Positions 9,040 through 52,662 are shown, counted from the stretch's first letter. The stretch: 64,000 bases of DNA from an uncultured Thalassospiraceae bacterium (GCA_964632795.1 CAZWEZ010000005.1:314-64313), one strand, 5' to 3'. Notes: a model not told the origin generated them from the letters alone. Numbers and translations are program-made.

Positions 9040-10092
9040 ATGAAAAGACGCAATTTCCTCAAGAAAGCAGGTGTCGCGACAGCAGGCGCGGTGGCAGCGA
9101 CAGCCCTCAGCGCGCCGTTTGTCAAGACGCAGGCGAAAACGACCATCAAGTGGCGGCTTCAAACCTATGCCGGCCCGGCCCTGGGCGCGCATGTCATCAA
9201 ACCGTCGATCGACGCCTTCAACAAAGTCGCCGGCAGCGACATGAACATCGAGCTGTATTTCTCCGACCAGTTGGTGCCTACCGGCGAGCTGTTCCGGGCG
9301 ATGCAGAAAGGGACCATCGACGCCGTCCAGAGCGACGACGACTCGATCGCGGCGCCGGTGGATGTTTCCGTGTTCGGCGGCTACTTCCCGTTCGCCACCC
9401 GCTACAGCCTGGACGTCCCGGTGCTGTTCAACCAGTACGGCCTGAAGGAAATCTGGGAGGAGGCCTACGGCGAGGTGGAAGGCGTCACCTGGCTCAGCGC
9501 CGGCGCCTGGGACCCCTGCCACTTCAACACCGTCGACCCCATCTACAGCCTTGCCGATCTCAAGGGCAAGCGGGTGTTCACCTTCCCCACCGCCGGAAAA
9601 TTCCTGACGCGCTTCGGCGTCGTTCCGGTGACGCTTCCCTGGGAGGACATCGAGGTCGCCGTTCAAACCGGCGAGTTGGACGGCATCGCCTGGTCCGGCA
9701 TCACAGAGGACTACACCGTCGGCTGGGCCGATGTGACCAACTACTTCCTGACCAACAACATCTCCGGCGCCTGGATCGGGTCGTATTTCGCCAATTCCAA
9801 CAGCTGGGACGCCCTGCCCGAAAACCTGCAGACCCTGTTCAGACTGTGCATGGACAGCTCGCACTACTACAGGCAGTACTGGTACTGGGGCGGCGAAGCC
9901 GAACTCCGCACCAAGGGCACCAAACTGAAACTGACCTCGATCCCCGACGAAGAGTGGGCGACCGTCGAGCAAGAGGCGTACAAGTTCTGGGATGAGATTG
10001 CCGCCAAGAGCCCGAGGAGCGCCAAGGTGGTGCAGATCATCAAGGACTACGCCAAAACCATGACGGACGCCGGTCCTCCGTACCGGTACTAA
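9040..10092 (+). CDS. TRAP transporter periplasmic solute-binding protein (Tat-signal, COG4663-like)
   Basis: AAGGAG (9025-9030) precedes ATG 9040. The twin-arginine signal is MKRRNFLKKAGVATAGAVAATALSAPF. The mature part resembles the mannitol/chloroaromatic-type DctP family. Confidence 0.85.
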   Translation: MKRRNFLKKAGVATAGAVAATALSAPFVKTQAKTTIKWRLQTYAGPALGAHVIKPSIDAFNKVAGSDMNIELYFSDQLVPTGELFRAMQKGTIDAVQSDDDSIAAPVDVSVFGGYFPFATRYSLDVPVLFNQYGLKEIWEEAYGEVEGVTWLSAGAWDPCHFNTVDPIYSLADLKGKRVFTFPTAGKFLTRFGVVPVTLPWEDIEVAVQTGELDGIAWSGITEDYTVGWADVTNYFLTNNISGAWIGSYFANSNSWDALPENLQTLFRLCMDSSHYYRQYWYWGGEAELRTKGTKLKLTSIPDEEWATVEQEAYKFWDEIAAKSPRSAKVVQIIKDYAKTMTDAGPPYRY

Positions 10093-11638: not shown

Positions 11639-11989
11639 CGCCCCTCCCCTTCCCGGCGCTCCCGGAGGGCCCCGGAAGGGACATCGCCATTGCCTCCCTG
11701 TACCATGGGCCGGAAACCTGTTGTACAGGGAAATGAGTTCAACCCACAATGAAACGGGACGGGATGAGGGACATCGGGAGCATTACGGGACTTTGCGGAG
11801 ATCGAGAGCCCCCGGGAATCGCTCCCAGACCCTCGAAAATTAGAATCATCTTGATTTACCCTCGGGCCCATCGCTAGGCTACGACCGCTACGGAGTGGAA
11901 CAGGTGGGCGTCGAGACCGAACATAAGGCCTTGAAAACCCTTCCGAATATGATCAGGGACGGAACCAGGCAAGGGGCAGGGGCGAGAAA

Positions 11990-12094
11990 TCAAAAGACGT
12001 AGAATGACAGGATCAGAACGATCACGATCGCGTTGACGACCATTCCCGTGAAAATCACGATGTCGGCCGGGGAGATTTTCTTGGTGAACCTCAT
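11990..12094 (-). CDS. Possible 34-aa hydrophobic peptide (MRFTKKISPADIVIFTGMVVNAIVIVLILSFYVF)
   Basis: An ATG..TGA ORF below the 60-aa track cut-off with one clear TM segment. It has no convincing Shine-Dalgarno sequence and is divergent from the 12169 operon. Confidence 0.2.
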   Translation of the reverse strand: MRFTKKISPADIVIFTGMVVNAIVIVLILSFYVF

Positions 12095-12168
12095 GGGGTG
12101 GACGCTAGGTTATCCGGGTTGGCGTTGTCAATCCGCAGTGAGGGACTGAACAAGGGGAAACCGCGAAG

Positions 12169-12276
12169 ATGAACGGCGAAGGAAACGAAGACTCGAAATA
12201 TCCATGGGCGGGACCGGTTCTGTTCGGCGTCGTCCTGGTCGCCGTGATCGCCTTCTTCTGGTGGTTCCTCGGCTGA
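12169..12276 (+). CDS. Mini membrane protein, 35 aa (MNGEGNEDSKYPWAGPVLFGVVLVAVIAFFWWFLG)
   Basis: An ORF found by hand, below the track cut-off. It has a single TM helix and is first in a chain of closely spaced co-directional genes. Confidence 0.45.
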   Translation: MNGEGNEDSKYPWAGPVLFGVVLVAVIAFFWWFLG

Positions 12277-12296
12277 CGGAGAGGGAGGAGACCGAG

Positions 12297-12413
12297 ATGA
12301 AAGGGTACGCGGTGCCGTTCGCCATCGCCTTCGTGGTCTGCGGGGCGGCCTTCTTCGTCATGGACTACGCGGTGATGAACGTCCAGGGGCTGTCCCTGTT
12401 CTTTGAAAACTGA
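12297..12413 (+). CDS. Mini membrane protein, 38 aa (MKGYAVPFAIAFVVCGAAFFVMDYAVMNVQGLSLFFEN)
   Basis: GAGGGAGGAG (12281-12290) lies 6 nt upstream of ATG 12297. The product has a single TM helix and ends 28 nt before the CydA-like gene. Confidence 0.55.
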   Translation: MKGYAVPFAIAFVVCGAAFFVMDYAVMNVQGLSLFFEN

Positions 12414-12441
12414 CGCCATCTCGAGAGGAAGGCAAACTGAG

Positions 12442-14250
12442 ATGAGGGATCGTCTGGCGAAAACCGGCTGGCTGGCGTTGGCGTTGGTCCTGGCCGTGCT
12501 GGTGTTGGGCGGCGGCATCGAAGCCGTCGCCGCCGAGTCGGCCGCCGAGACGGTGGCCGAAGCCGAAGCGCCGCCCCTCTACGCCCCCGCGCCCCGGTTG
12601 AGCGTGGCCGACTACCCGACCATCGCCGGCGTCAATTCGCGGGTCGTGGTGTGGCTGGTCGCCCAGTTGCACCTGTGGTTCGCAGCCTTCGTGCTGGCGG
12701 TGCCGATCTTCGTCTTCATCATCGAGGCGATCGGCATGAAGACCCGGGACAAGCGCTTCGACGACATGGCCTACGAGTTCATCAAGGTCTCGATCACCGC
12801 CTATTCGCTGACCGCGATCTCGGGCGGTCTGCTGGTCTTCTCGCTGCTGATCTTCTATCCCCACCTGTTCCTCTACCTGTCGACGATCTTCAAGGAGACG
12901 ATGTTCTACTACGCGATCCTGTTCTTCGCCGAGAGCGCCTTCCTCTACATCTACTACTACGGTTGGCACTGGCTGCAGGGGGGATTCCGCAAGTGGGTGC
13001 ACCTGACCCTGGGGCTGCTGCTCAACGCCGTCGGCACGTTGCTGATGTTCCTGGCCAACGCCTGGCTGACCTTCATGATGAGCCCGGCCGGGGTCGATGC
13101 GGCCGGGGTCTTCGGCGGCGACACCATGGTTTCGATCCACAACTACCTGTGGAACCCCTTCAACCTTCACCGGTTCATCGCCAACATCGCCTACGGCGGC
13201 TCCATCGTCGGCGCCTACGCCGCCTTCAGGTTCCTGAGCGCGACGGCGCGCGACCAGAAGGCCCACTACGACTGGATGGGCTACAACGCCAACTTCATCG
13301 CCATCTCGGCGCTGTTGCCGCTGCCGTTCGCCGGTTATTACCTGTCGGCCGAGTTCTACGCCTACAGCCAGCAGATGGGGATCACCCTGATGGGCGGCAT
13401 CTTCGCCTGGATGTTCATCATCCAGGCGGTGCTGATCGGCGCCCTGTTCCTGTCGGCCAACTATTACCTGTGGTGCGGGATGGGGCGCAGCGACGGGGCG
13501 GTCCGCTACAACAAGTACATCAAGTACATCGCGGTGGTGATCGTGGCCTCGTTCCTGGTCTGGTTCACCCCCCACACCCTGGTCCTGACGAATGAGGAAC
13601 TGAAGGCGCTGGGCGGGCCGTATCACAAGTACATCGGCCCGCTGGGCATCATGCCGGCCAAGAACACGGCGGTGAACCTGATGATCCTGTTCACCTTCGT
13701 CAGCTTCGTGATCTACCGGCGCTGCAACAAGGTCGCCACGGTGTCGTGGGTCAAGGCCGGCAACGCCTTCCTTGTGGCGCTGTTCGCCACCGGCATCATC
13801 AACCTGTTCATCCTCGGCATCTACCACGGCTACTTCACCAACACCGTCTACAAGGTCGCGTCCTCCTGGCCACAGGTCGTCACCACCCTGATCATCATCG
13901 TCGTCACCGTCGTCGTCGACAACCTGATGTACAAGGGGGCCAGGGAGGTCGCTCCCCTCCAGTGGGGCCGGGTTCCCGCGCGCTCGCAGTACGCCCTGTT
14001 CCTGCTGGCGGTGGCCTTCACCTGGCTGATGGGGCTGATGGGGTATGTCCGCTCGGGCATCCGCCAGCACTGGCACGTGGTCGACATCATGCGCGACAAC
14101 TCGACCGAAGCCTTCACCCCGACCATAAGGTACGCGACCAACGTGGTTTCGGTGGGCACGGTCATCTTCATGGCCCTGGTCATCTTCGTGTTCTGGCTGA
14201 GCCAGGTCGGCGGCCGCAAGACGGTTCCCGCCGGCTACTGGAAGGAATAG
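12442..14250 (+). CDS. Cytochrome bd subunit I-like (CydA-like) polytopic membrane protein, orphan (no CydB partner)
   Basis: ATG 12442 follows GAGAGGAAGG. Helix-1 has a His motif (VAQLHLWFAAFVLAVPIF). An FFAESAFLYIYYYGW segment resembles the CydA FFLE..F..FGW segment. ANAWLTFMMSPAG resembles NSWMQ.P.G, and NPFNLHRFIANIAYGG is also present. The product is ~602 aa. The next ORF is a cytochrome c, not cydB. Confidence 0.75.
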   Translation: MRDRLAKTGWLALALVLAVLVLGGGIEAVAAESAAETVAEAEAPPLYAPAPRLSVADYPTIAGVNSRVVVWLVAQLHLWFAAFVLAVPIFVFIIEAIGMKTRDKRFDDMAYEFIKVSITAYSLTAISGGLLVFSLLIFYPHLFLYLSTIFKETMFYYAILFFAESAFLYIYYYGWHWLQGGFRKWVHLTLGLLLNAVGTLLMFLANAWLTFMMSPAGVDAAGVFGGDTMVSIHNYLWNPFNLHRFIANIAYGGSIVGAYAAFRFLSATARDQKAHYDWMGYNANFIAISALLPLPFAGYYLSAEFYAYSQQMGITLMGGIFAWMFIIQAVLIGALFLSANYYLWCGMGRSDGAVRYNKYIKYIAVVIVASFLVWFTPHTLVLTNEELKALGGPYHKYIGPLGIMPAKNTAVNLMILFTFVSFVIYRRCNKVATVSWVKAGNAFLVALFATGIINLFILGIYHGYFTNTVYKVASSWPQVVTTLIIIVVTVVVDNLMYKGAREVAPLQWGRVPARSQYALFLLAVAFTWLMGLMGYVRSGIRQHWHVVDIMRDNSTEAFTPTIRYATNVVSVGTVIFMALVIFVFWLSQVGGRKTVPAGYWKE

Positions 14251-14256
14251 GGGGCG

Positions 14257-15084
14257 ATGGGAAACTTCCTCAGGGTGGTCGTCTTCAGCCTCATCACCAT
14301 CGTCTTGTTCGCCGGCTATTCCGGGTGGGGGATCCCGCAGATCAAACCGGCGCCCCCGCCCAAGGAGGAAAAGCTGGACCTCGGCGCCATGACCATGGAC
14401 CGCTTCATCGCCCTGGGGGAGAAGATCTACAAGGGCAAGGGGACCTGCACGCTGTGCCACAACGAGCTGGGCCGGGCGCCGATGCTGGACAATGCCGCCG
14501 CGACCGCCGCCGAGCGGCTGGCCGATCCCGGATACCAGGGCACGGCCGAAACCGTCGAGGAATTCCTTTACGAGTCCATGGTCGATCCCACGGCCTACGT
14601 GGTCGCCGGCTTCGGCAAGAAGGGCACCAACGACACGGTCAGCCCGATGACAGACGTGTCGGCCGGCAGCACCCGGCTGTCGGAGGCCGAAATCAGCGCC
14701 CTCATCGCCTACCTCCAGGACCTGGCCGGGGCCGAGGTGACGGTGGAGATTCCGACCGGCGTCGCCGAAGACGACGGCGAGGAAGACGGCGAGGAGGGCG
14801 AGGCCAGGGCGCCCCTCGAGAGCGCCGAGGAGGTGATCGAGGAATTCGCCTGCGGCATTTGCCACGTCATCGCTGGCGAGGAAGGGGAGTTGGGTCCCGA
14901 CCTGTCGAAGATCGGCGCCGACAGGGACCGCGACTTCCTGCGCCGCTCCATCCTCGACCCCAACGCCGAGCTCACCGAGGGCTTCGAGGAGGATATGATG
15001 CCCCCCGACTACGGCGAACAGATGTACGCCAAGGAACTGGAAATGCTGCTGGATTACATGGCCGGGTTGAAAGAGGGGGAATGA
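14257..15084 (+). CDS. Membrane-anchored dihaem cytochrome c with acidic linker
   Basis: There is an N-terminal TM anchor, two CXXCH motifs (CTLCH, CGICH) and an EDDGEEDGEEGE linker. The stop overlaps the next start (ATGA at 15081-15084). Confidence 0.85.
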   Translation: MGNFLRVVVFSLITIVLFAGYSGWGIPQIKPAPPPKEEKLDLGAMTMDRFIALGEKIYKGKGTCTLCHNELGRAPMLDNAAATAAERLADPGYQGTAETVEEFLYESMVDPTAYVVAGFGKKGTNDTVSPMTDVSAGSTRLSEAEISALIAYLQDLAGAEVTVEIPTGVAEDDGEEDGEEGEARAPLESAEEVIEEFACGICHVIAGEEGELGPDLSKIGADRDRDFLRRSILDPNAELTEGFEEDMMPPDYGEQMYAKELEMLLDYMAGLKEGE

Positions 15085-15875
15085 GGACGATGTGGATTCT
15101 CAGCTTGTTCCGGGCCAGGTTGCTCCAGGCGATCCTGGTCCTGGTCGGGATTTACGTCGCCTTCATCGTCGTCTTCGATTATCTGCTCGGCGAGGTGATC
15201 CCCTCCAGCCTGCTGAACATGTACATGTTCTTCGCGGCGGCCGGGGTGTTCATGGTCTTCACCTTCACCGAGGAGGGGGCCCGCGAGATGGTGGCGCCGA
15301 TCAAGGCGCTGGTCGAGGATTCGTCCCGGAAGGTGATCCGCAACGTGGTTTTCGCGATCGTCCCCCTGGTGGCCGGGGCTTACGCCTACATGCAGATGCT
15401 GCCCGGCCTGGAGGCGCCGCTCGAGCTGCGCTCCATCCATCCGGCGCCGCCGACGACGGCCAAGATGTTCGGCAAGCGTTTCGACCTGCAGACCCTGGAG
15501 AACCCGTACCGCAAGTTCGAGAAGGAGGACCCGGAGAAGTTCCGCCAGCTGGTCGCCGCGGGGGCCGAGGTGTACATCGAGAACTGCCACTTCTGCCATG
15601 GCGACAAGCTCGACGGCAAGGGTCCCTACGCGGCGGGTCTGAACCCGATCCCTCTCAGTTTCCAGGACATCGGGACCATCGCCCAGTTGCAGGAATCCTA
15701 CCTCTTCTGGCGGATCACCACCGGCGGCCCCGGCCTGCCCGAGGAGGCGGCGCCGTGGATTTCGTCGATGCCGATCTGGGAGGACTTCCTGAGCGAGGAT
15801 GAGATCTGGAAGGTGATCCTGTTCCTCTACGACTACACCGGCCACCGGCCGCGGGCCTGGGGGGAGCACGAGTGA
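15081..15875 (+). CDS. Three-TM membrane protein with C-terminal monohaem cytochrome c domain
   Basis: The start is MRTMWILSLFRARLLQAILVLVGIYVAF. There is one CXXCH (CHFCH) followed by LFWRITTGGPG...MPIW. The upstream part of ORF 13746..15875 is an artefact. Confidence 0.8.
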   Translation: MRTMWILSLFRARLLQAILVLVGIYVAFIVVFDYLLGEVIPSSLLNMYMFFAAAGVFMVFTFTEEGAREMVAPIKALVEDSSRKVIRNVVFAIVPLVAGAYAYMQMLPGLEAPLELRSIHPAPPTTAKMFGKRFDLQTLENPYRKFEKEDPEKFRQLVAAGAEVYIENCHFCHGDKLDGKGPYAAGLNPIPLSFQDIGTIAQLQESYLFWRITTGGPGLPEEAAPWISSMPIWEDFLSEDEIWKVILFLYDYTGHRPRAWGEHE

Positions 15876-17398
15876 TGGTTGCCAGACGCTTTGCGTGGAT
15901 GATCACGGCGGCCCTGCTGGCGGGGGCGCCGGCTCATGGGGCGCCGGGCGACGCCGAGCGGGGAGAGGAGATCTACGTCAAGCGGTGCATGAACTGCCAC
16001 GGCGAGGAGGGCGACGGCCTGGGCCCGGGCGCCGAGCGGCTCAACCCGCCGCCCCGGGACTTCACGCTGGGCCTGTACAAGATCAAGACCACCGGCTTCG
16101 ACGATCCGGTGCCCAACGACGCCGACATCTACCGGATGATCGAGGTCGGCATGCCGGGGACCTCGATGCCCGGCTGGGGCGACGTGCTGTCCGAACAGGA
16201 GATATTGGACCTGGTCGCCTACCTCAAGGTATTCGCCGAACTGGAGGAGGAGGAACCCACCGAGCAGCTCGACTACGGCACCGCCGTAGCCTCTTCGGCC
16301 GACAGCATCGAGATCGGCCGCAAGCTGTTCCTGGACGGCGATCGGTGCTCCGAATGCCACGGCGTGGACGGCCGGGGAGACGCCATCAAGAAGCTCAAGG
16401 ACGACAACGGTGAGAGGACCTGGCCGCGCAACCTGACCAAGCCCTGGACCTTCATCGCCGGCAACGATCCCAAGGAGATCTTCGCCCGCATCTCGGTCGG
16501 CATCCCGGGCACCCAGATGCCGTCCTTCGCCGACCCCAAGAGCAAGAAGAAGCTGAGCGTCGAGGAGCGCTGGCACATCGCCAACTTCACCGCCTCGCTG
16601 GCCGACCCCGCCAAGACGGTACGGGCCGAGAAGACGGTGATCAAGGCGGCCAAGATCGACGGCGAGCTGCCCTCCGGACCCGAGGACCCCGCGTGGGCGG
16701 CGATCGAGGCGGTGAACTTCTTCATGGTCCCCCAGATGTTCCTCGAGGAACGGTTCTTCACCCCGTCCAACGACACCGTCTCGGCGCGCGCCCTCTACAA
16801 CGACCGGGCCATCGCCTTCCTGCTCGAATGGGACGACCGCACCCGGAGCACGCCCGGCGACGCGGCGGCGGAGAAGATCGCCGACCCCGGGATCGCCGAG
16901 GACGGGATCGCCATCCAACTGCCGGTGAGCATTCCCGAGGACATGGAGAAGCCCTATTTCGTGATGGGCGACGCCGCCGACCCGGTCAATTTCTGGCACT
17001 GGCGCGGGGGCACCGCCGAGGAGCCCGAGAGCGTCGCCCTGTACAACGCCAGAGGTCTCGCCGAGGTCGAGGAACGGGACGCCGCGGCGGCCGGCATCGC
17101 CGCCAAGGGAGCCTACAAGGCCGGCACCTGGCGGGTGATGATGACCAGGGAGCTGACCACCTCCGATGCCGAGAACGACCTCCAGTTCGAGGAGGGCCGG
17201 TTCATCCCCATCGCCTTTTCCGCCTGGGACGGCTCCAACAGCGAACGGGGCTCCAGGCGCACCGTGTCCACCTGGTACTGGCTGCTTCTCGAACCGTCGG
17301 TCGGCTCCAAGCCGATCGTCGCCGCGCTGATCGTCATCGTCCTGCTGCTCGGCGCCGAGCTGTGGTGGGCCCGCAGCGCGACGCGCAAAGGGACCTGA
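15875..17398 (+). CDS. Dihaem cytochrome c fused to an EB_dh (ethylbenzene-dehydrogenase gamma / DOMON-like haem-binding) domain, with C-terminal TM anchor
   Basis: A signal peptide is present. The haem motifs are CMNCH and CSECH. The C-terminal half (FFMVPQMFLEERFFTP...LLEWDD...IAIQLP...NFWHWRGG...GTWRVMMTREL...FSAWDGSNSERGSRRTVSTWYWL) matches my recollection of the EB_dh family. The start is GTG 15872 or ATG 15875, overlapping the upstream stop. Confidence 0.8.
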   Translation: MVARRFAWMITAALLAGAPAHGAPGDAERGEEIYVKRCMNCHGEEGDGLGPGAERLNPPPRDFTLGLYKIKTTGFDDPVPNDADIYRMIEVGMPGTSMPGWGDVLSEQEILDLVAYLKVFAELEEEEPTEQLDYGTAVASSADSIEIGRKLFLDGDRCSECHGVDGRGDAIKKLKDDNGERTWPRNLTKPWTFIAGNDPKEIFARISVGIPGTQMPSFADPKSKKKLSVEERWHIANFTASLADPAKTVRAEKTVIKAAKIDGELPSGPEDPAWAAIEAVNFFMVPQMFLEERFFTPSNDTVSARALYNDRAIAFLLEWDDRTRSTPGDAAAEKIADPGIAEDGIAIQLPVSIPEDMEKPYFVMGDAADPVNFWHWRGGTAEEPESVALYNARGLAEVEERDAAAAGIAAKGAYKAGTWRVMMTRELTTSDAENDLQFEEGRFIPIAFSAWDGSNSERGSRRTVSTWYWLLLEPSVGSKPIVAALIVIVLLLGAELWWARSATRKGT

Positions 17399-17446
17399 GC
17401 AGGAGACCGGACGATGGCCGAAGACCAACCCAGGAAAGGGGTCAAG

Positions 17447-17617
17447 ATGCGCATCTTCGGGGTCATCCTGATCTTCGTCGGGGTGCTCGACGGGATGCTG
17501 GCGTGGCGCGGCGGCTTCCAGCTCAGCGGCTTCTACGTGGTGCTGTTCGCCTCCGGGGTCCTGCTGTTCGCGCTGGGCGCCGTCAGGGGCCGGCGGCGGC
17601 CGGAGGAGTCCCGGTGA
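17447..17617 (+). CDS. Small two-TM membrane protein (56 aa from ATG 17447; 67 aa if ATG 17414)
   Basis: The product begins MRIFGVILIFVGVLDGMLAWRGG...VVLFASGVLLFALGAV. The stop overlaps the GTG start of the next gene (GTGA at 17614-17617). Confidence 0.5.
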   Translation: MRIFGVILIFVGVLDGMLAWRGGFQLSGFYVVLFASGVLLFALGAVRGRRRPEESR

Positions 17618-19266
17618 GCGAGGTCCCCCGGACCGAGGAGACCCCGGAGCGGTGGACGGCGCCCTGCCGGCGCATCCTGGTGGCACTCGACAATTCCGAC
17701 CACGCCGGGCGGGCGCTCGCCGAATCGATCCGCCTGGCCGGCTTCGCCGGGGGCACCGTGACCGGCATCCACGCCTACGCCGCCCGCCTCCACGACCGCC
17801 GTTTCCGGCAGATGGAGGGCGGGCTGCCGGCGCGCTACCTGGCCGAGGCCGAGATGTCGCACCAGCGCGAGGTCCACGACGACCTGATCACCCGCGGCCT
17901 CGACATCATCAGCGACAGCTACCACGACGTCGCCGAGAAGTCCTGCCGGCAGGCCGACGTCCCCTACCGCCGCCTCAGCCCGGAGGGCAAGAACTACCGG
18001 CGCATCGTCGAGGCCGTCGGGAGCGGCGACTTCGACCTTCTGGTCCTCGGCGCGCTGGGGGTCGGCGCGGTGCCCGGGGGCACCGTCGGCACCGTCTGCG
18101 AGCGGGTGGTCCGGCGCAGCCCGATCGACGTCCTGGTCGTCCGCGACCCCGCCCGGGCCCTCGACGCGGGGCCGATCGTGGTCGGCCTGGACGGCTCGCC
18201 GCGTTCCTTCGGCGCCCTGCTTGGCGCCCTCGACCTGGGGCGCCGGCTGGGCGCCGTGGTCCACGCCGTGGCCGCCTACGACCCCTACTACCACTACGTC
18301 GCCTTCAGGCGCATCTCCGGGGTGCTGAGCGAGGAGGCGGGCAAGGTGTTCCGCTTCAAGGAGCAGGAGCAGCTCCACGAGGAGCTGATCGACGAGGGCA
18401 TCGCCCGCATCTACCGCTCCCACCTCGAAGTGGCCGCCAGGATCGCCGGCGAGGACGGCGTCGAGCTGGTCACCGAGCTGCTGGACGGCAAGCCCTACCG
18501 GACCATCCTCGGCTACCTGGAGAAGGTCGGCGCCGGCCTGCTGATGGTGGGGCGGACCGGCATCCACGCCGATTCCGCCCTCGACATCGGCGGCAACGCC
18601 GAGAACCTGCTGCGCCTGGCGCCGTGCCACGTGTGGTTCGTCGCGGCGTCCTACGAGCCGCCCCTGGAGATGGTCGCCGCCGAAACCGTCGCCTGGAGCC
18701 CCGAGGCCGAGGAGTTGCTGTCCAGGGCCCCCGAGTTCGCCCGCGACATGGCCCGTCAGGCGGTGCTGCGCCACGCCCACGAACAGGGCCACACCTTCAT
18801 CACCACCGACATCGTCGGGGAGGTGGCCAACCGGCTGATGCCGGGGCGCGGCGAGGCCGCCTGCCCCCACGGCGCGGCGGAGCCGGCATGGAGCGCCGAG
18901 GCAAGCGCCCTGATCGAGGGCCTCGACAATCCCGCCCTGGCCGCCAACGTCCGCCTGCGGGCCGAGAAGCTGGCCCGCCGCGAAGGCGCGGAAACGGTCC
19001 TGGCGTCCCACCTCCGGCCCTTCATCGACGATCCCGGAGAAGGCGACTTAGCGCCGTGGTCGGCGGCGGCGCTGGCCTGCCTGGCCCGGGTCCCCGAGGC
19101 CGTGCGCGAGCGCGTCCGGGCCCGTGTCGAGACGGTGGCCCGCAACCGGGGGGCCGGCGAGGTGACGCCCGAGATCGTCGAGGCCGGGTTCGCCGAGGCG
19201 CGCCAGGCGATGCACCGGGCGATGCTGGACGGCGGCCACAAGCGGACCGTCGACGACGGGGAATAG
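17614..19266 (+). CDS. Tandem universal-stress-protein (USP) domains fused to three PCP_red-like (ChlB/BchB C-terminal type) repeats
   Basis: GGAGGAG (17602-17608) precedes GTG 17614. There are two USP-like halves (ILVALDNSDH...LLVLGALG; IVVGLDGSPRS...LLMVGRTG). Three repeats follow of the pattern W(S/T)xEAxxxLxxxPxxxRxxxR...G...(V/I)Txxxx, at roughly 18694-18816, 18889-19014 and 19057-19188. Confidence 0.75.
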   Translation: MSEVPRTEETPERWTAPCRRILVALDNSDHAGRALAESIRLAGFAGGTVTGIHAYAARLHDRRFRQMEGGLPARYLAEAEMSHQREVHDDLITRGLDIISDSYHDVAEKSCRQADVPYRRLSPEGKNYRRIVEAVGSGDFDLLVLGALGVGAVPGGTVGTVCERVVRRSPIDVLVVRDPARALDAGPIVVGLDGSPRSFGALLGALDLGRRLGAVVHAVAAYDPYYHYVAFRRISGVLSEEAGKVFRFKEQEQLHEELIDEGIARIYRSHLEVAARIAGEDGVELVTELLDGKPYRTILGYLEKVGAGLLMVGRTGIHADSALDIGGNAENLLRLAPCHVWFVAASYEPPLEMVAAETVAWSPEAEELLSRAPEFARDMARQAVLRHAHEQGHTFITTDIVGEVANRLMPGRGEAACPHGAAEPAWSAEASALIEGLDNPALAANVRLRAEKLARREGAETVLASHLRPFIDDPGEGDLAPWSAAALACLARVPEAVRERVRARVETVARNRGAGEVTPEIVEAGFAEARQAMHRAMLDGGHKRTVDDGE

Positions 19267-19269
19267 GCC

Positions 19270-20526
19270 ATGGCCTCCACCGTCCAGCCGCCGTACCTGG
19301 TCGCCCTCAACCTGACCCGACGCTGCAACCTCCGTTGCGCCCACTGCTACCTGGACGCCGGCACCCGGGCCGGGGGCGGAGCCGGCGCCGGAGAAGAACT
19401 ATCCACCGCCGAGGTCGAAACCCTGCTCGAGGGGATCGCCGCGCTGAACGGCGAGGCGATGGTGGTGCTGACCGGCGGCGAGCCGCTGCTGCGCCCCGAC
19501 CTCGAGGCGATCGCCCGCCACGGCTCCGGCCTCGGGCTGATGATGGTGCTCGGCACCAACGGCACCCTGCTCGACGCGCGGCGGGTCGCCGGCCTGATCG
19601 CCGCCGGGGTGCGGGGCGCCGGGATCAGCCTGGATTCCCTGGATGCGGACTATCACGACGGTTTCCGGGGCGTGGCCGGCTGCTGGGAGAAGACCATGGC
19701 GGCCATCGACGCCTGCCGGCGGGGCGGGCTCGGCTTCCAGATCCACTTCTCGGTGAGCGACGACAACGCCGACCAGTTGGACGACATGATCGCCTTCGCC
19801 CGCTCGGCCGGGGCGCTGGTGCTCAACGTCTTCTTCCTGGTCTGCACCGGGCGCGGCGAGCAGCTGTCCAACGTCTCCGCGGCGACTTTCGAAGACGTCC
19901 TGGGCCGCATCGCCCGGGCCGCCCACGCCGAGAGCGGATTGCTGATCAGGGCCAAGTGCGCCCCCCACTTCAAACGCCTGGCCATGGAGCTCGACCCGTC
20001 GTGGCCGATCACCCTGGCCCACGGCTACGAGGCCGGCGGCTGCCTGGCCGGCAGCCGCTACTGCCGGGTGACCCCGGAAGGCGAGGTCACGGCCTGTCCC
20101 TACATGGAGCCGTCCGCCGGTTCGATCCGCGAGCGCCCGTTGGCCGACATCTGGCGCGAGGCGCCGCAGTTCGCCCAACTCCGGGCGCCGGTTCTGGAGG
20201 GCCGCTGCGGGGAGTGCGAGTACCGCCGGATCTGCGGCGGCTGCCGGGCCCGTCCCCTGGCCAGGAGCGGCGACCTGATGGGCGAGGACTTCCTGTGCGG
20301 CTACCAGCCCCGGGGCGGGGCGGTGATCGAGCCCCTGAGGCCGGCGGCGGGGACCGTCTCGTGGACCCAGGAGGCCGAACAGCGGCTGCTCCGGGCGCCC
20401 GCCTTCCTGCGCCGGATGGTCCGCGGGCGGGCCGAGGAGTACGTCCGCGGCCGCGGCCGCAGCCGGGTCACCGCCGACGACATGCGAATCCTCGGCCAGC
20501 GGCGTTTCGGGGAGGACCGGCGATGA
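19270..20526 (+). CDS. Radical SAM/SPASM enzyme (AhbD/NirJ-like) with C-terminal PCP_red-like domain
   Basis: The CxxxCxxC motif is RRCNLRCAHCY (19324-19347). SPASM-type Cys clusters are present (CLAGSRYCRVTPEGEVTACPY; CGECEYRRICGGCRARP). The C-terminal WTQEAEQRLLRAPAFLRRMVRGRAEEYVRGRGRSRVTADDM lies at ~20362-20484. Confidence 0.85.
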   Translation: MASTVQPPYLVALNLTRRCNLRCAHCYLDAGTRAGGGAGAGEELSTAEVETLLEGIAALNGEAMVVLTGGEPLLRPDLEAIARHGSGLGLMMVLGTNGTLLDARRVAGLIAAGVRGAGISLDSLDADYHDGFRGVAGCWEKTMAAIDACRRGGLGFQIHFSVSDDNADQLDDMIAFARSAGALVLNVFFLVCTGRGEQLSNVSAATFEDVLGRIARAAHAESGLLIRAKCAPHFKRLAMELDPSWPITLAHGYEAGGCLAGSRYCRVTPEGEVTACPYMEPSAGSIRERPLADIWREAPQFAQLRAPVLEGRCGECEYRRICGGCRARPLARSGDLMGEDFLCGYQPRGGAVIEPLRPAAGTVSWTQEAEQRLLRAPAFLRRMVRGRAEEYVRGRGRSRVTADDMRILGQRRFGEDRR

Positions 20527-21935
20527 GGTTCGACGTGGCGATCGTCGGGGGCGGGATTTCGGGGCTGGCGACGGCCTACGAACTGGTCCGCCGGGGCCGC
20601 CGGGTGGTGGTCCTGGAGCGCCAGGTGCGGCCCGGCGGGACCGCCGTCTCCGAGCGCCTCGGCGGTTTCCTGATGGAGCACGGGCCGAGCACCCTCAACG
20701 GCGCTTCGGAGGCGGCGCTGGGCCTGTCCCGGGCGCTCGGCCTGGAGGGCGCGCGGTGCGAACTCGGCGACCGGGTGCGACGGCGCTACCTGGTCGACGG
20801 CGGAGGCCTGCACGGCATCTCGACCCATCCCCTGGGGTTCCTGGTCTCCGGCTACCTGTCGCCGGGGGCGCGGCTGCGGCTGCTGGCCGAGGCCGTGGTG
20901 CCGCGCCGCGCCGAAGACGGCGACGAGGAGACGATCGAGGACTTCTGCCGGCGCCGCTTCGGGGCCGAGTTCGCCGAGCGGGTGATCGACCCCCTGGTCG
21001 CCGGCATCTACGCCGCCCGGGCCGGCGAGGCGTCGGTGTCGGCGCTGTTCCCGACCCTGGTCGAGATGGAACGCCGCCACGGTTCGGTGTGCCGGGGGCT
21101 GGCCCGCCGCCGCCGGGGCGGGCGGATGCCGGGCAGCCGGCTGTTCTCGTTCGCCGGCGGCCTGGGCAGCCTGCCCCGGGCCCTGGCCGGGGCCCTCGGC
21201 GGGGTGGTGCGGAGCGGCATCGCGGTGCGCCGGGTGCGCCCGGCGGCCGGCGGTTATTCCATCGAGGCGGAGGCGGCAGGAAGCATCGAGGCGCGCTCGG
21301 TGGTGCTGGCCACCCAGCCCCACGTCACGGCGCGGCTGCTCGACGGCCTCGACGAGGCGGGCGCCGAGGCGGCCTCGGCCATCGCCGCGCCGCCGCTGGC
21401 GGTGGTCTTCCTCGGCTACCCCCGGCGCCGGGTCGCCCATCCCCTGGACGGCCTCGGCTTCCTCGGCGCCGAGGCCGAGGGGCGGGCGCTCAACGGCGCC
21501 CAGTTCTGCTCGACCATGTTCCCGGGCCGGGCGCCCGAGGGCCACGTGGCGGTGGCCGGCTACATCGGCGGGGCGCGGGCTCCGGAGCTGGCCCGGCTCG
21601 GCGAGGACGAGTTGATCTCCATCGCCCGCGAGGAGTTCGCCGACCTCATCGGGGCGCGGGGCGAACCGGTGGTGGCCCGGGTCCGCCACTGGCCGGTGGG
21701 GTTGCCCCAGTACCGGCTCGGCCACGCCTTACGCGCCGCCGCGCTGAGCGGCCTGGCCGAGCGCCGGCCCGGCCTCTATGCGACCGGCAACTATCTGCGC
21801 GGCCCCTCGGTGGCGGCCTGCCTGGCCCTGGCCCTGGAGACCGCCGCCGAAGCCGACGCCCACCTCGCCGCGAGCGCCGCCGAGGCGCCGCCCATCCGCC
21901 GTCACCGGCTTGCCCGGCCTGCCGCGGGAAGGTAG
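20523..21935 (+). CDS. FAD-dependent protoporphyrinogen/coproporphyrinogen oxidase (HemY/CgoX-type)
   Basis: ATG 20523 overlaps the upstream stop (ATGA). The dinucleotide-binding motif is MRFDVAIVGGGISGLATAYEL...LERQVRPGG. The family-typical tail is HWPVGLPQYRLGH...LYATGNYLRGPSV. The upstream 957 codons of ORF 17652..21935 are an artefact. Confidence 0.8.
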   Translation: MRFDVAIVGGGISGLATAYELVRRGRRVVVLERQVRPGGTAVSERLGGFLMEHGPSTLNGASEAALGLSRALGLEGARCELGDRVRRRYLVDGGGLHGISTHPLGFLVSGYLSPGARLRLLAEAVVPRRAEDGDEETIEDFCRRRFGAEFAERVIDPLVAGIYAARAGEASVSALFPTLVEMERRHGSVCRGLARRRRGGRMPGSRLFSFAGGLGSLPRALAGALGGVVRSGIAVRRVRPAAGGYSIEAEAAGSIEARSVVLATQPHVTARLLDGLDEAGAEAASAIAAPPLAVVFLGYPRRRVAHPLDGLGFLGAEAEGRALNGAQFCSTMFPGRAPEGHVAVAGYIGGARAPELARLGEDELISIAREEFADLIGARGEPVVARVRHWPVGLPQYRLGHALRAAALSGLAERRPGLYATGNYLRGPSVAACLALALETAAEADAHLAASAAEAPPIRRHRLARPAAGR

Positions 21936-28339: not shown

Positions 28340-29515
28340 ATGCCCCAACCGATCACCATCCTGGCCTATGGTTTCCGCCCCTTCTTCCTCCTCGCGGGCC
28401 TCTACGGGGTGTTGTCCATGGCCTTCTGGCTGTTGGTCCTCGCGGGCGGGCCGGACGTTTCGCCGACCATCGCGCCGCAGCTCTGGCACGGCCACGAGAT
28501 GCTGTTCGGCTTCGCCGCCGCGGCGGTCAGCGGTTTTCTGTTGACGTCGGTCCCCAGTTGGACCAACTCGCCCCCGGCAACCGGCCCCTGGCTGGCCCTG
28601 CCGGTGGTCCTGTGGATTGCCGGGCGGGCCGCCATGTGGCTGGCCGGTGTGCTTCCCCCGGTGGTGACGGCTGTCGCCGATTTGTCCCTGATCCCGGTCC
28701 TGTTCCTGATGGTGGGGCCCCGGATCCTGGGCTGCGGACAGCGCCGGAACTACATCTTCCTGGTCCTTCTGGGGGTGCTGTTCGCGGCCAACCTGCTGTT
28801 CCACCTGGAGGCCCTGGGGGTGAGCGGGGATACGGCGCGCGGCGGTCTCAAGCTGGCGGTCTACGGCTACATCCTGATGCTGTCGGTGGTCGCCGGACGG
28901 ATCATACCCTTCTTCACCGCCAACGCCCTCAAGGGACAGGGCGAGGACGTCGAGATCCGCCCCAACCCGGTCCTCGAAATCCTGGCCCTGGTGGTGATGG
29001 CCGCCTACATGGCCAGCGACCTGGCCGAGGTCGCCGAATCGATCCGTGGCGGGCTGGCCTTCGCCACCCTGCCGATCCTGCTGCTGCGGATGGCCAATTG
29101 GCGAACCGCGAAGACGCTGGGCATCCCGATCCTGTGGATCATCCACCTCGGCTACCTGTGGCTGCCGGTGGGGTTCGCCAGCCTCGGGGCGGCCCACCTG
29201 GGCGCCGCCGTGCCCATCACCATGGGACTTCACGCGCTGACCACCGGCGCCGTCGGGACCATCGTCATGGCGGTGATGACGCGCGCCGGGCTGGGCCATA
29301 CCGGGCGCCCGCTGGTGGTCCCGTGGCCGATCGTCGCGGCCTATCTGCTGGTCACCCTGGCCGCCCTGTTCCGCACCGCAGCACCGTTGAGCGATGCCGG
29401 CTACGACATCCTGATCATCGCCGCCGGCGGCGCGTGGTCGGCGGCCTATGGGGTGTTCACGGTGGTCTACTGGCCGCTCCTGACCCGTCCGCGCATCGAC
29501 GGCAAGCCCGGTTGA
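28340..29515 (+). CDS. nnrS: NnrS family haem/copper membrane protein (NO-response)
   Basis: The product begins MPQPITILAYGFRPFFLLAGLYGVLSMAFWL...LWHGHEMLFGFAAAAVSGFLLTSVPSWT. It is a 391-aa polytopic protein. Confidence 0.9.
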   Translation: MPQPITILAYGFRPFFLLAGLYGVLSMAFWLLVLAGGPDVSPTIAPQLWHGHEMLFGFAAAAVSGFLLTSVPSWTNSPPATGPWLALPVVLWIAGRAAMWLAGVLPPVVTAVADLSLIPVLFLMVGPRILGCGQRRNYIFLVLLGVLFAANLLFHLEALGVSGDTARGGLKLAVYGYILMLSVVAGRIIPFFTANALKGQGEDVEIRPNPVLEILALVVMAAYMASDLAEVAESIRGGLAFATLPILLLRMANWRTAKTLGIPILWIIHLGYLWLPVGFASLGAAHLGAAVPITMGLHALTTGAVGTIVMAVMTRAGLGHTGRPLVVPWPIVAAYLLVTLAALFRTAAPLSDAGYDILIIAAGGAWSAAYGVFTVVYWPLLTRPRIDGKPG

Positions 29516-37316: not shown

Positions 37317-40300
37317 TTATTTTTTATTAGGCGGCTTGCTGGAACGAGTCTTCTTGCGGGTAGGCCGTTTCGTTTTACTGGTTAAATGGCCATCCACCAT
37401 CGTCAGTCCAAGGCGGGAAGCCTCTTTTTCTCTGAACCGCGAAATCAGACCAAAGTCGGCCATCGTTAACTCTGTCACTGGAGCTTTTAAAGCGTTTGGT
37501 AGATCAGGGATTTCGTTCCAGCCATGCTGATAATTATTAAAAGAGTCAAGGGAAGTTAAGGTGTGACAGATGGCATCTCTCACAAAACTAGTCAAGTTCT
37601 CTATCCTTGAAGCCAAAATTGGGATATCGCCATCATTGAAAGCGGTGATGACTTTAACGATCCATCCACCGACTGGATGTTCGAGGGAAATGATGGCGAC
37701 ATGTTCTAACAAACCGACTCTGGAATATTTGAATGCAAATGTCGTAGAACGAGGTAATTTCTCAGCAATATATATCGGTTTATTGTTCTTAGTTCGTATT
37801 ATTGAAGATGTGTGATCTTGCTTTTGCCAGTAAATTGCCAGATAAATCTCGTCGATCCATTCGATTTTTTGAATCTGTCGATCAGAAAATAGTTTTTTCG
37901 TGAATTTTTCACACATTCTGAGACGGTCATCTGGATTTATCGCCGCCTCGATAGCTTTGAACAATCTATCATCGGTCTTGCCAAGATTTTTTGGAGATTC
38001 GAAAAATATTAAGTCATGAAGCCCTTCTTGCCTTGAGTCTAATATCTCCACAACCACCGAAATTTCACAAGCCTGTTGCAGAGAAATCAGTTTTCTTTTA
38101 CCGCGCCTTACAATCGGTACAGTCTTCGGTTGGGCAACCCAAAAGTCTTCGATATCAAAAATCTCCGAAAGACGCTGTTTATAAGCCCAACCATCCTGGC
38201 CCTTAGCTATTGCCGTCACAGATAAATGGTTTGAAAGTATATCCACCCACCGATCAGTCACAACACTGGGATCGAATTGCACTCGTGGTGTATAGTGCAT
38301 GTAGTCAATCGAACGACGCGACAATGGTGGTCTAAACGTGTCATCACGGATGTCAATTCTATGAATCTTATTGCCTTTGTAACCTACAAAACCTCCCAAA
38401 TGCATGACAACTCCATGGAAATACAGCATAGCTTTCGGTATTTCTGGGCTTTCTACCTGCGGAAAATCTATTTTATAATAGTAAATATAGTTGTTAATTT
38501 TGCTCCAATCTTCATTACCAGACGCATCTACGTGACAAAGAACATATAAATCACCCTCTATACCGCACCATTCTTGATTTTTTTTAACTACGGGAAAGGA
38601 CTTAAGAACAAACCGACAGTCTTTCGTGCGAATATCTTCGACATCGAAGGTAAACTCTTCGCCTCTTTCCGCTGTGATCTCACAGACCTGCCCAAAATCG
38701 TCGACTTCGATCGTGAATTCGACACGCCGGCACAATTCGCGGACATAGGCCGTCAATTGTCCGGAATTGAGGGCGCTGTCGGGTCTTAGCAGAACCTCGA
38801 TCCGGGTTCCTGGCTCCGTGCGGTCGCCATCTTCGACCACTAAATAACCACGGGGACCGTTGAGAGTAAGTTTAACCGGGTTATCACCCGATTCGGAGGA
38901 CGGTTTGAAGGTCTCAACGGTAACATGGTTCGATACGCCGAATACGGACAGAAAACCGACCCCAAATCGACTAGTCGGGGTAAAGGCGTAACGTTGGCGG
39001 AAGTCTTCCGTCGTGTAATATGATAGGCCGATCTGAAGCAGATGGTGCGATATCACCTGCTCGTCCATGCCGATCCCACAGTCATCAATCACAAGGACTC
39101 GCTGTTCCTCACCATTTCCATTTCCGTCGGTTTCACCGGAACCGCCCGTAATCGAAAGGCGAAGGCGATATCTTTCTCTGACTTCAGCGGGAACCAGTGT
39201 CGGAGACCGTGGCGTTGGTTTACCGGCTTCCTTCAAGTCCTCGTACATCCGGCATCGCATGGCATCCAAGGCGTTCTGAATGAGTTCGCGCACAAAATCC
39301 TTCTCATCTTCGTAGGCATCGAAGATAAGCCGGTTCATCACTTCGGTTTCATCCAGTTGAAATCGCCAATCTTTGATTTGGTATGTTGCGTCAGGCGCTG
39401 AAACGATCTTGATGGTTGGATCGCTACCAGCCATCCGCGCTACCGGAGGTTCCCACACTTTTCGCTCGCTTGGATCGGCAAGCAAATTCGGGATGGCTTC
39501 CACTTCGTTCACGATCCATTGACACCAATCCCGAAGAACCCGGTGTTCCTCCGGATTGCCACATTCCGCATTAACTTCGATTTTCTCCGGCGTCACGGCT
39601 CGATGGCTTATGCTCCGATATTTGGTCCAATGTGCATAACTGTCGTCCGGCAAGGGACAGGCGGCATTCAATAGAAGCGGGCAGGCCCGGTCGGTCCCCA
39701 TGTCGAGCAGGTCGCCCAACCGAAGCAAAATCGCCATAAGCCTGGTATTGACGTTCTCGCCACGTATCTGGGTAAGGATGGGAAACCGAGTCCGGTCATC
39801 GAGTCCATCCGGTGGGAGCCCATGCGCGATGCATACGTTCGCGATGGTCCTTTCCAATTGCGGATCATCGTAGGCGAAACGACCAAGGGCGGATTGATGT
39901 TGGGAAATGACGTCTCCGGCACGCTCATGATGACGCCGACGAACGAAGTCCGCGATCATGAAACGGACTTCCCTATCGGCGATGAAATTTCTTATGACTT
40001 GATTGTCAGGCTCATCACTGTCTCGCATTTCCTTGATTTCGCGCCAGCGCTGTGTACCGCCACCGTCCTGTCCGGTCCATTTTTTCCAGCCGTCAGATTC
40101 CAGGATTTTCTGTTTTTCCTCGTCGGAAGCAACCATACCGCTGTCGTGAAGGTAGGCAGCGACAATAAGAATATAGACTTCGACGGAAGAGAGATTGACG
40201 GTAGGAGTTAGCGAATCGGGAGGGAAAAGCAGATGTGATAGCTGCGTAATTATTGCTTCGCTATGGCCTATTGTGTGTCGGGTGTAATGCGGAAAGGTCT

Positions 40301-47341: not shown

Positions 47342-47690
47342 TTACAGTCCGTCCTCGGCGATGCGGCGGATCAGGAAGTCGCGGAAGACGCCGATCCGCT
47401 CGGAATGGAGCAGTTCCTCGGGGTAGACGAAGAAGGCGTCGAAGCTGGGCCCGGGCAGCTCGGGCAGAACCTCCACCAGGTTGCCCGATTCGTGGCTCAT
47501 GTAGTCGGGCAGGCCGCCGATGCCGAGCCCGCTCTGGACCGCCCGGAAGATGCCATAGATGCTGTTGACCTTGAGCACCGCGCGGCGCCGGGCGCCCGAC
47601 TTGACGCCGGCCTCGAAAGTGAAATCGTGGATGCCGACCCGCCTGCTGCAGGAAAGCGGCCAGTGCGGGTGAGGACCTCTCAGCCGACCC
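47342..47690 (-). pseudogene. LysR-family regulator remnant (C-terminal ~115 codons only)
   Basis: The frame reads ...VGIHDFTFEAGVKSGARRRAVLKVNSIYGIFRAVQSGLGIGGLPDYM...LVEVLPELP...FFVYPEEL. This is the typical C-terminal effector-domain end of a LysR regulator. No HTH-encoding 5' part exists; the frame runs into the 3' end of the 47680..48396 gene. Confidence 0.6.

Positions 47691-51490: not shown

Positions 51491-52662
<1,172 letters not shown>

Follow-up and report, generated by a model that had tools for sequence, protein, structure and literature searches.

The cytochrome bd-like enzymes termed OR-N are presumed to be the terminal oxidases of Nitrospira, Nitrospina and manganese-oxidising Nitrospirota, organisms that drive global nitrification, and they constitute a long-standing gap in nitrifier bioenergetics. 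The OR-N2 type has been described by Murali, Gennis and Hemp (bioRxiv 10.1101/2021.01.16.426971) as a 14-helix CydA homologue without a quinol site, whose operons encode several cytochromes c and an EbdC homologue and often lack a second CydA; the same authors defined an OR-C family, in which haem c is fused to CydA. Later genome papers place a NIDE0901-like OR-N2 subunit in a putative terminal oxidase of Nitrospirales, stressing that its composition and function are still to be tested. Here we analyse a 64-kb stretch of DNA from an uncultured Thalassospiraceae bacterium (GCA_964632795.1, CAZWEZ010000005.1:314-64313; the whole stretch is hereafter the window), in which ten same-strand genes (g1 to g10, 12169-21935, plus strand) join a bd-like complex of apparent OR-N2 type to a putative haem module.

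The putative catalytic subunit is encoded by g3 (12442-14250, plus strand), an OR-N2-type CydA-like membrane protein of 602 amino acids (aa) and about 14 helices. It passes the Pfam Cyt_bd_oxida_I profile with 48.5 bits (cut-off 26.2), bearing out the CydA likeness put forward in a preliminary description of this DNA. The AlphaFold2 (AF2) model of g3, with a mean predicted local distance difference test score of 75 and a predicted template modelling score of 0.78, contains 14-15 long helices, and the ten best matches in a Foldseek search of the PDB are all CydA chains (E 1e-7 to 2e-4). In this predicted structure, hydrophobic helices fill the segment from the H243 helix to M404, so that the hydrophilic Q-loop is absent.

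We compared g3 with the published OR-N2 residue table (Murali, Gennis & Hemp) through Pfam and PDB alignments. The E. coli CydA haem ligands H19 and H186 are kept as H77 and H243, E107 is kept as E164, H126 corresponds to H187 and W441 to W544. E99 is replaced by tyrosine (Y157), F114/F116 correspond to Y171/Y173, S140 to L201 and E445 to S538, and the M393 region aligns with the pair M404/N408, which the OR-N2 row numbers M430/N434. All positions of the OR-N2 row agree, with spacings equal to those of the reference, and the OR-N1 pattern (Y/G, T, T) is unmatched. By signature residues, helix count and operon content, g3 matches OR-N2 of the NIDE0901/TO_1 type, to which it would belong; it shares 51-54% identity with syntenic homologues from Nitrospirales. 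On this match, the first six or seven genes of the operon would be of a known but uncharacterised kind. The "orphan", unclassified protein of the preliminary description thus finds its place residue by residue. The "cytochrome-c-associated" families mentioned there do not provide it: g3 has two Cys in total and no CxxCH, which rules out OR-C.

A canonical CydAB quinol oxidase is likewise ruled out, by the lack of CydB and of a Q-loop and by Tyr at E99 and Ser at E445. Both the doubt about a canonical quinol:O2 bd oxidase and the absence of cydB from the window, as first described, are therefore upheld. The operon leaves no room for CydB, and none was found among window open reading frames (ORFs) of >=200 aa with >=5 transmembrane (TM)-like segments; the polytopic ORFs checked (DctM, g3, EamA, NnrS, a BPD_transp_1 permease, a shadow frame over that permease region and DUF420) are all something else.

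To place this core in a wider context, species-representative genomes were scanned with g3, and relatives were confirmed in at least 593 of 600 candidate stretches. The set used below comprises 83 loci (numbered with L), 80 kept from the scan and three from contig look-ups. The order g3-g4-g5-g6 is adjacent in essentially all of these loci that are long enough to show it. They span the Alpha-, Beta-, Gamma-, 'Delta'- and Zetaproteobacteria, Nitrospirota and Nitrospinota, and include Rhodospirillales, Hyphomicrobiales, Parvularculaceae, Burkholderiales, Gallionella, Mariprofundaceae, 'Deltaproteobacteria' metagenome-assembled genomes (MAGs), Sedimenticola, Thiodiazotropha, Thiomargarita, Arenicellales and Acidiferrobacteraceae.

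Three cytochromes c complete the core. The membrane-anchored dihaem protein g4 (14257-15084, plus strand; 275 aa) has two CxxCH motifs, an N-terminal TM segment and matches to Cytochrom_C and Cytochrome_CBB3, and in nearly all loci of sufficient length a homologue of it comes after g3. The monohaem protein g5 (15081-15875, plus strand; 264 aa) has one CxxCH, three TM-like segments and a Cytochrome_CBB3 match. Finally, g6 (15872-17398, plus strand; 508 aa, with an alternative ATG start possible at 15875) joins a dihaem cytochrome c, with two CxxCH, to an EB_dh (EbdC/NxrC-like) haem-b domain and a C-terminal TM anchor. It scores 95 bits against EB_dh in Pfam and 119 bits against the NCBIfam model for the DMSO-reductase type II gamma subunit, and in the PDB its dihaem part matches 6H5L_B (150 bits) and its EB_dh part EbdC 2IVF_C (55 bits). 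One 795-aa ORF spans the g5 and g6 matches in locus L071, an apparent fusion.

Both CxxCH motifs of g6 are kept in essentially all of its 78 homologues (the first one in 77). The positions equivalent to the EbdC haem ligands are Met365 and Arg463 in the window. At the equivalent of EbdC Lys201, the family has His in 49 of 78 sequences and Met in 21, and the window has Arg (codons 462-464, 17255-17263), whose codon CGC is one transition away from CAC. The other ligand position keeps Met in the window; the commonest pairs in the family are His/His, Met/His and Arg/Met.

The ten genes tile 12169-21935 with uninterrupted reading frames, and explicit translation gives proteins of 35, 38, 602, 275, 264, 508, 67, 550, 418 and 470 aa. 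Successive intergenic distances from g1 to g10 are 20, 28, 6, -4, -4, 15, -4, 3 and -4 nucleotides (nt), with a 6-nt gap at 14250/14257, ATGA at 15081-15084, GTGATG at 15872-15877, GTGA at 17614-17617, a 3-nt gap at 19266/19270 and ATGA at 20523-20526. This is the run of ten co-directional, translationally coupled ORFs reported in the preliminary description, at the same coordinates and with the same start/stop geometry. Two details of that account change: of its two mini-peptides, the second starts at 12297 and has 38 aa, and its ten genes are joined by a conserved eleventh that it had overlooked, g0 (11990-12094, minus strand).

A purine-rich, Shine-Dalgarno-like stretch precedes every start from g1 to g10. 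The G+C content of third codon positions (GC3, 0.75-0.96) far exceeds that of second positions (GC2, 0.33-0.58) in this genome of ~65% G+C, and all ten genes therefore look coding; long minus-strand ORFs across the operon have first-position G+C (GC1) above GC3 and are thus shadow frames. The products of g3, g8, g9 and g10 are present with the same ends in public protein collections. A proline racemase gene upstream and an EamA transporter gene downstream both lie on the minus strand, which makes the operon a discrete unit. The presumed promoter region (11750-12168), the sole long non-coding gap adjoining the operon, holds the mini-gene g0. A simple scan of the operon's upstream region found no sigma-70 consensus, terminator-like sites were no commoner than in shuffled sequence, and an Rfam search of the operon and its leader gave no match.

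The second half of the operon opens with g8 (17614-19266, plus strand; 550 aa), a tandem universal stress protein (USP) with PCP_red repeats and a putative ATP-binding protein for tetrapyrrole/haem hand-off or regulation. In Pfam, its two Usp stretches score 109 bits and PCP_red 90 bits, with two confident PCP_red units and one degenerate unit. The first USP domain holds the motif G-x2-G-x9-G-T (GALGVGAVPGGTVGT), in agreement with the UspA-type ATP-binding signature G-x2-G-x9-G-S/T. RQMEGGLP and DPYYHYVAF are strongly conserved in the g8 family, and its PCP_red repeat follows the pattern W-S/T-x2-A ... R-x-P-x-F/A-x-R, in 1 to at least 4 copies per homologue. A Cys-Pro linker motif is found in 81 of 100 g8 homologues (92 occurrences against 18 expected from composition); it typically reads GKCPFAH, is ACPHGA in the window and takes a rubredoxin-like CPxC form in the Nitrospirota type. 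PCP_red (Pfam PF08369) forms the C-terminal region of BchB, the protochlorophyllide reductase subunit that binds the substrate.

Next to it, g9 (19270-20526, plus strand; 418 aa) is a radical-SAM/SPASM enzyme with a CX3CX2C motif and a C-terminal PCP_red domain, recognised by Pfam and NCBIfam. It scores over its full length against TIGR04545 (AhbD, 287 bits) and TIGR04055 (NirJ2, 291 bits), in both cases under the 500-bit cut-off, and is best taken as a probable AhbD relative, not a proven equivalog. The last gene, g10 (20523-21935, plus strand; 470 aa), encodes a flavin adenine dinucleotide (FAD)-dependent porphyrinogen oxidase of the HemY family (TIGR00562, 241.5 bits; cut-off 97.85). Its best PDB match is M. 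xanthus PgoX 2IVD (251 bits), ahead of B. subtilis CgoX (157 bits). The position of Phe227 of B. subtilis, which is CgoX-specific and strictly conserved among CgoX enzymes, a single-residue criterion from a study of 74 sequences, is Leu in g10 and its closer relatives and Ala, Ser or Thr in a divergent type. Both the Leu and the PDB ranking favour PgoX, and a purely coproporphyrin-type reading of g10 as CgoX is unsupported.

Two orders of the module's steps can be envisaged. In a coproporphyrin-type order, g10 would act first, followed by a ferrochelatase and then g9; in a protoporphyrin-type order, g9 would act on the porphyrinogen, followed by g10 and the host ferrochelatase. The PgoX-like features of g10 lean towards the latter without settling it, and judging by homology ordinary haem b would be the likeliest product under either order. 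The preliminary description had spoken of a "tetrapyrrole-modifying" module, an overstatement, as homology indicates only the terminal steps of ordinary haem b synthesis. All of its domain calls were reproduced by Pfam or NCBIfam, as were the two, one and two CxxCH motifs of g4, g5 and g6; of the three PCP_red units it gave to g8, two are confident and the third is degenerate.

The haem genes recur beside the oxidase genes. In 32 of the 83 loci, one or more of g8, g9 and g10 lie no further than 10 kb from them, and 18 loci have all three within this distance. The module is found downstream on the same strand in 10 loci, downstream on the opposite strand in 4, upstream on the same strand in 4 and upstream and divergent in 14. 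Persisting through four arrangements in several classes of proteobacteria, the linkage speaks for selection and not for recent common descent. Within the window, g7 and g8 have overlapping start and stop codons, as do g9 and g10, and 3 nt separate g8 from g9. The HemY-type gene passes TIGR00562 in all arrangements (209-258 bits) and comes in two highly divergent types, with 47-65% and 28-38% identity to g10. The whole system is also present in a cultured gammaproteobacterium, Aestuariirhabdus sp. LZHN29 (L071, 3455-20446), with the haem module divergent from the oxidase genes.

With moderate confidence, we propose that the locus encodes an OR-N2-type bd-like complex, the proteobacterial counterpart of NIDE0901/TO_1, co-transcribed with a cytoplasmic module for haem supply or hand-off. 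Periplasmic electrons would enter through the five c-type haems on g4, g5 and g6, pass to the EbdC-like haem-b domain of g6 and then reach the haems of the 14-helix g3, with a low-spin site formed by His243 and Met404. The active-site haem of g3 would sit on His77, near a channel containing Tyr157 and Glu164, and we infer that O2 is most likely reduced there, or possibly a related small oxidant in its place. The peptides g0, g1, g2 and g7 may be accessory subunits. In the cytoplasm, the AhbD-like g9 would turn two propionates into vinyl groups with loss of CO2, and the six-electron oxidation of the porphyrinogen macrocycle would fall to g10, with haem b as the likely product of the module. The USP domains, PCP_red repeats and Cys-Pro motif of g8, together with the PCP_red tail of g9, would hold or hand over the tetrapyrrole in a chaperone-like role, possibly gated by ATP through the USP domains. 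Each complex would need about eight or more haems (five c-type, one b-type in EB_dh and two to three in g3), which gives a plain reason for a linked supply module.

Several observations weigh against this proposal. On the oxidase side, O2 reduction by OR-N enzymes is a hypothesis of the literature, no OR-N member having been purified, and g6 of the window has Arg where its closest relatives carry a putative haem-ligand His. On the module side, the score of g9 lies below the AhbD trusted cut-off, HemY is just 28-38% identical between locus types, which suggests replacement and not strict co-evolution, and no ferrochelatase was seen in any inspected locus. Furthermore, eight loci, proteobacterial or other, lack the module although their flanks extend for the full 10 kb on either side (the remaining loci of the 83 being too short to judge), and no haem module lies near any Nitrospirota or Nitrospinota OR-N2 locus. 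In a reverse test, in which metagenomes were scanned with an alignment of g8 homologues, most of the g8-g9 pairs recovered have no bd-like gene within 10 kb (for example L106, L115, L117, L118, L121, L123, L138 and L139).

The gene order around three of these pairs (L106, L115 and L121) is a UbiE-like methyltransferase, a B12 radical-SAM protein, g8, g9 and a DUF4149 membrane protein. With 399 bits, the UbiE-like protein exceeds the cut-off of 335 of the NCBIfam model for MpqE, the methyl-plastoquinone methyltransferase; methyl-plastoquinone was found only in aerobic Nitrospirota in the original study. Nitrospirota thus carry the g8-g9 pair unlinked to their OR-N2 oxidase, and the occurrence of such pairs beside mpqE without an oxidase implies a wider role, again counting against a module that serves the complex alone. 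A strictly dedicated module is ruled out by this search. A fair summary is that a widespread unit of USP/PCP_red protein and AhbD-like enzyme has been drawn repeatedly, and not exclusively, to bd-like oxidase genes, with HemY joining in proteobacteria. The hypothesis of the preliminary description that the downstream genes serve the complex's cofactor is thereby supported in part: the g3-g6 synteny and the linkage are conserved (32 loci in four arrangements, with all three genes in 18), and strict dedication is lost, the module being missing from some loci.

The five-gene block itself (L106, 7363-14222) is also present in L115, L121 and ~40 further metagenome loci on Nitrospirota-type contigs. 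Its g8 has a rubredoxin-like insert, its B12 radical-SAM protein is related to slr0320 and its membrane protein is DUF4149/CopD-like; we found no description of the block in the literature searched. Other settings of g8-like genes involve transporters. In L149 (2649-10138), a USP/PCP_red gene stands beside genes for an ABC ATPase, an ABC-2 permease, a short CydA-like protein and a cytochrome b. The layout of L157 (4451-9906) agrees by gene size and order, with a weak CydA-like match, and in L151 (8476-12368) the neighbour is a fused ABC exporter of CydDC-type architecture. These transporter neighbours give a hint of a tie to haem transport. The distance between a g8-like gene and a CydA-like gene is ~2.5 kb in L113.

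What the module makes can be read in other ways. It is possible, if somewhat doubtful, that g8-g10 form a general alternative route to haem b, a low-oxygen or horizontally acquired branch of HemY and AhbD kept by chance beside the oxidase. The homology of both enzymes points to ordinary haem b precursors and the g8-g9 pair is widespread without a bd-like neighbour; also in favour of such a route, AhbD has been recruited into coproporphyrin-dependent pathways in other bacteria (PMC13564367) and Nitrospirota have been grouped among CgoX (coproporphyrin-pathway) organisms (PMC10740692). However, a linkage that outlasts four rearrangements and large divergence across classes is hard to explain without selection for proximity, the module is translationally coupled to g7 in the window, and g8-like genes also stand beside other OR-N-like oxidase genes. 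At the other extreme, we consider it very unlikely that the module makes a non-protohaem active-site cofactor replacing haem d, be it coprohaem, a monovinyl intermediate or another derivative. Such a product could account for the divergence of g9 from AhbD (under the equivalog cut-off and with an extra PCP_red), for the presence of HemY and AhbD, which Proteobacteria normally do not need, and for the persistent linkage, and it would suit a haem environment that differs in OR-N2 through the loss of the canonical CydA E99 and E445. Yet the proteobacterial loci share no conserved gene for an additional modifying enzyme (a methylase, hydroxylase or chelatase), the module is missing from the Nitrospirota OR-N2 loci, and the sequences bear no sign of new chemistry. 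It is quite unlikely, too, that the USP/PCP_red protein, the AhbD-like enzyme and HemY form an unrecognised cofactor-biogenesis system for OR-N oxidases, acting through a non-protohaem tetrapyrrole or as an obligatory haem-insertion machine. If true, this would account for how a CydA homologue can function with neither CydB nor haem d, and the 11-gene cluster would be the first portable Nitrospira-type terminal oxidase.

The roles of the complex and of g8 also admit alternatives. The neighbours of the oxidase genes vary, from periplasmic nitrate reductase genes in Arenicellales to SCO1 and a HEAT/PBS-lyase-like repeat protein in L001, with CCP_MauG near OR-N2 clusters in 20 loci. This variety fits a general cytochrome-c-level electron sink and leaves room for acceptors other than O2. 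Taken further, the complex could be an electron hub at the level of cytochrome c, or a reductase of nitric oxide (NO), nitrite or peroxide for periplasmic enzymes, and not an O2 reductase. Besides those variable neighbours, which include an arsenite oxidase with two CCP/MauG genes and an NnrS gene 6 kb away, the origin of many source MAGs from oxygen-poor waters and sediments and the putative status of O2 reduction by the OR-N family speak for it. We nevertheless regard it as unlikely, given that the active-site His (equivalent to H19) has been retained, as has part of the proton channel, and that the family is a conserved candidate terminal oxidase of aerobic nitrite oxidisers, some of which have no other oxidases. 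An ATP- and haem-responsive USP regulator or sensor that tunes g9 activity or expression, in place of a chaperone, seems an improbable role for g8, to about the extent that a non-oxygen acceptor does. USP domains are typically nucleotide-binding regulators and g8 carries G-x2-G-x9-G-T, its Cys-Pro followed by a hydrophobic residue resembles haem regulatory motifs, and it pairs with g9 in very different genomic settings; against this, Pfam finds no DNA-binding or signalling output domain in g8, and a repeat number of 1 to at least 4 is expected of a carrier or scaffold. The OR-N2-type complex with a linked haem supply module is the reading that we retain.

Four small membrane peptides accompany these genes. 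The 34-aa single-TM peptide g0 (MRFTKKISPADIVIFTGMVVNAIVIVLILSFYVF), divergent to the operon in the window, is conserved: tblastn finds it at 34-84% identity in 35 OR-N2 loci, Nitrospirota included, on the plus strand in 14 and on the minus strand in 21. In nearly all of its loci it lies at most ~1 kb upstream of the CydA-like gene, and tblastn did not find it in the metagenome loci retrieved by the g8 query. The peptide probably represents a small subunit or an assembly factor that has gone unrecognised. The first operon gene, g1 (12169-12276, plus strand), encodes a 35-aa single-TM peptide by translation, and 13 loci contain homologues of it. The peptide stands alone in the window and in L001 (~9120-9216), but in L002 (Arenicellales, 9287-9784) the same sequence serves a 165-aa monohaem cytochrome c as its N-terminal membrane anchor, from which we conclude that a cytochrome domain was gained or lost. 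Just 5' of the CydA-like gene, g2 (12297-12413, plus strand) encodes a 38-aa single-TM peptide that has counterparts in 16 loci. Gene calls of 38-39 aa place it immediately upstream of the CydA-like gene in L001, L002 and L003, and it is a small-subunit candidate, CydX-like by position. Finally, g7 (17414-17617, plus strand) encodes a 67-aa peptide with two TM-like segments, has homologues in 19 loci and directly follows g6 in the inspected loci L001 and L002. The open-access literature searched contained no description of g0, g1, g2 or g7, and none of the haem module, of its PCP_red proteins or of a linkage between oxidase and haem module, an absence that is not proof.

The window has one bd-like cluster only. 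Many proteobacterial loci have a second, paralogous cluster just upstream (L001, 2186-8972; L002 and L003, 2239-9146), which encodes a CydA-like protein of 717-729 aa with 41-45% identity to g3, its own cytochromes c and a dihaem-c/EB_dh protein. The two clusters may form a pair in the style of OR-N1 and OR-N2. An ~800-aa HEAT-repeat protein with PBS-lyase-like (CpcE/NblB-type) repeats adjoins OR-N2 clusters in 19 loci (for example L153, 6528-8933, and L001, 1-1777), and a protein of ~250 aa with a CarboxypepD_reg-like C-terminus does so in 27 (for example L053, 5879-6643, and L071, 8670-9407); both are absent from the window. In L071, the oxidase genes are followed by two CCP/MauG peroxidases and the arsenite oxidase AioBA.

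Elsewhere in the window, a gene 6 kb downstream of the operon (28340-29515) encodes NnrS, a haem-copper membrane protein associated with the NO response, and a DUF420 membrane protein is encoded at 47680-48396; neither is linked to the operon in other loci. A 1034-aa HD-CE/HATPase-like gene (37317-40421, minus strand) sits in a stretch of low G+C (~0.49-0.57 against ~0.65 for the window) that looks like a horizontally acquired island, and a DNA methylase with a RAMA domain is encoded at 51491-52573.

The same complex is widespread in proteobacteria, where haem-synthesis genes usually accompany it, and exists as a compact, translationally coupled operon with its own haem genes. Together with its occurrence in the cultured isolate Aestuariirhabdus sp. 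LZHN29, a possible experimental model, this makes heterologous expression and genetics of the family realistic. In g8, g9 and g10 it also offers three specific candidate assembly factors, a handle on how the complex is built.

Compared with described OR-N2 systems (the NIDE0901-like proteins of Nitrospira and 'TO_1' of Ca. Manganitrophus), the window system has the same residues, ~14 helices, no Q-loop, no CydB and no second CydA, and its operon likewise holds several c-type cytochromes and an EbdC homologue. It differs from NIDE0901/TO_1 in its host, which is alphaproteobacterium-like and not from Nitrospirota, and from described OR-N2 operons by its additional USP/PCP_red, AhbD-like and HemY module, unmentioned in the literature searched. 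With canonical CydAB(X) it shares the subunit I fold, the active-site His, the low-spin His/Met pair and a gene for a single-TM peptide beside subunit I. In contrast to CydAB(X), it lacks CydB and the hydrophilic Q-loop, has Tyr for E99 and Ser for E445 and five extra helices, and its presumed donors are c-type cytochromes instead of quinol. Like the cbb3 oxidase CcoNOQP, it has membrane-anchored mono- and dihaem c subunits (with weak FixO/CcoP-type matches), a tiny TM peptide and cytochrome c as presumed donor, whereas its catalytic subunit is CydA-like and not of the haem-copper type, with no CcoN.

The haem genes, too, resemble known enzymes in part. With AhbD/NirJ2, g9 shares a full-length match, CX3CX2C and a Cys-rich SPASM domain; it adds the C-terminal PCP_red and is always paired with a USP/PCP_red protein, its candidate substrates being coprohaem or coproporphyrinogen. 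Compared with the HemY enzymes M. xanthus PgoX (2IVD) and B. subtilis CgoX (3I6D), g10 has the FAD-binding N-terminus and is nearest to PgoX, but it is encoded inside a respiratory operon, and two divergent HemY types fill this role across loci. The PCP_red domain of g8 and g9 is the Pfam domain found at the C-terminus of BchB/ChlB of the dark protochlorophyllide reductase; in the window it occurs on a radical-SAM enzyme and on a USP scaffold (one to four times in the family), without a nitrogenase-like BchN/BchB core and in a host that is not a phototroph. The pair of USP/PCP_red protein and AhbD-like enzyme is an undescribed, widespread two-gene unit of tetrapyrrole metabolism. The oxidase half of the operon has already been described at the phylogenomic level, Proteobacteria included, and it is the linkage of this oxidase to the haem module that looks new.

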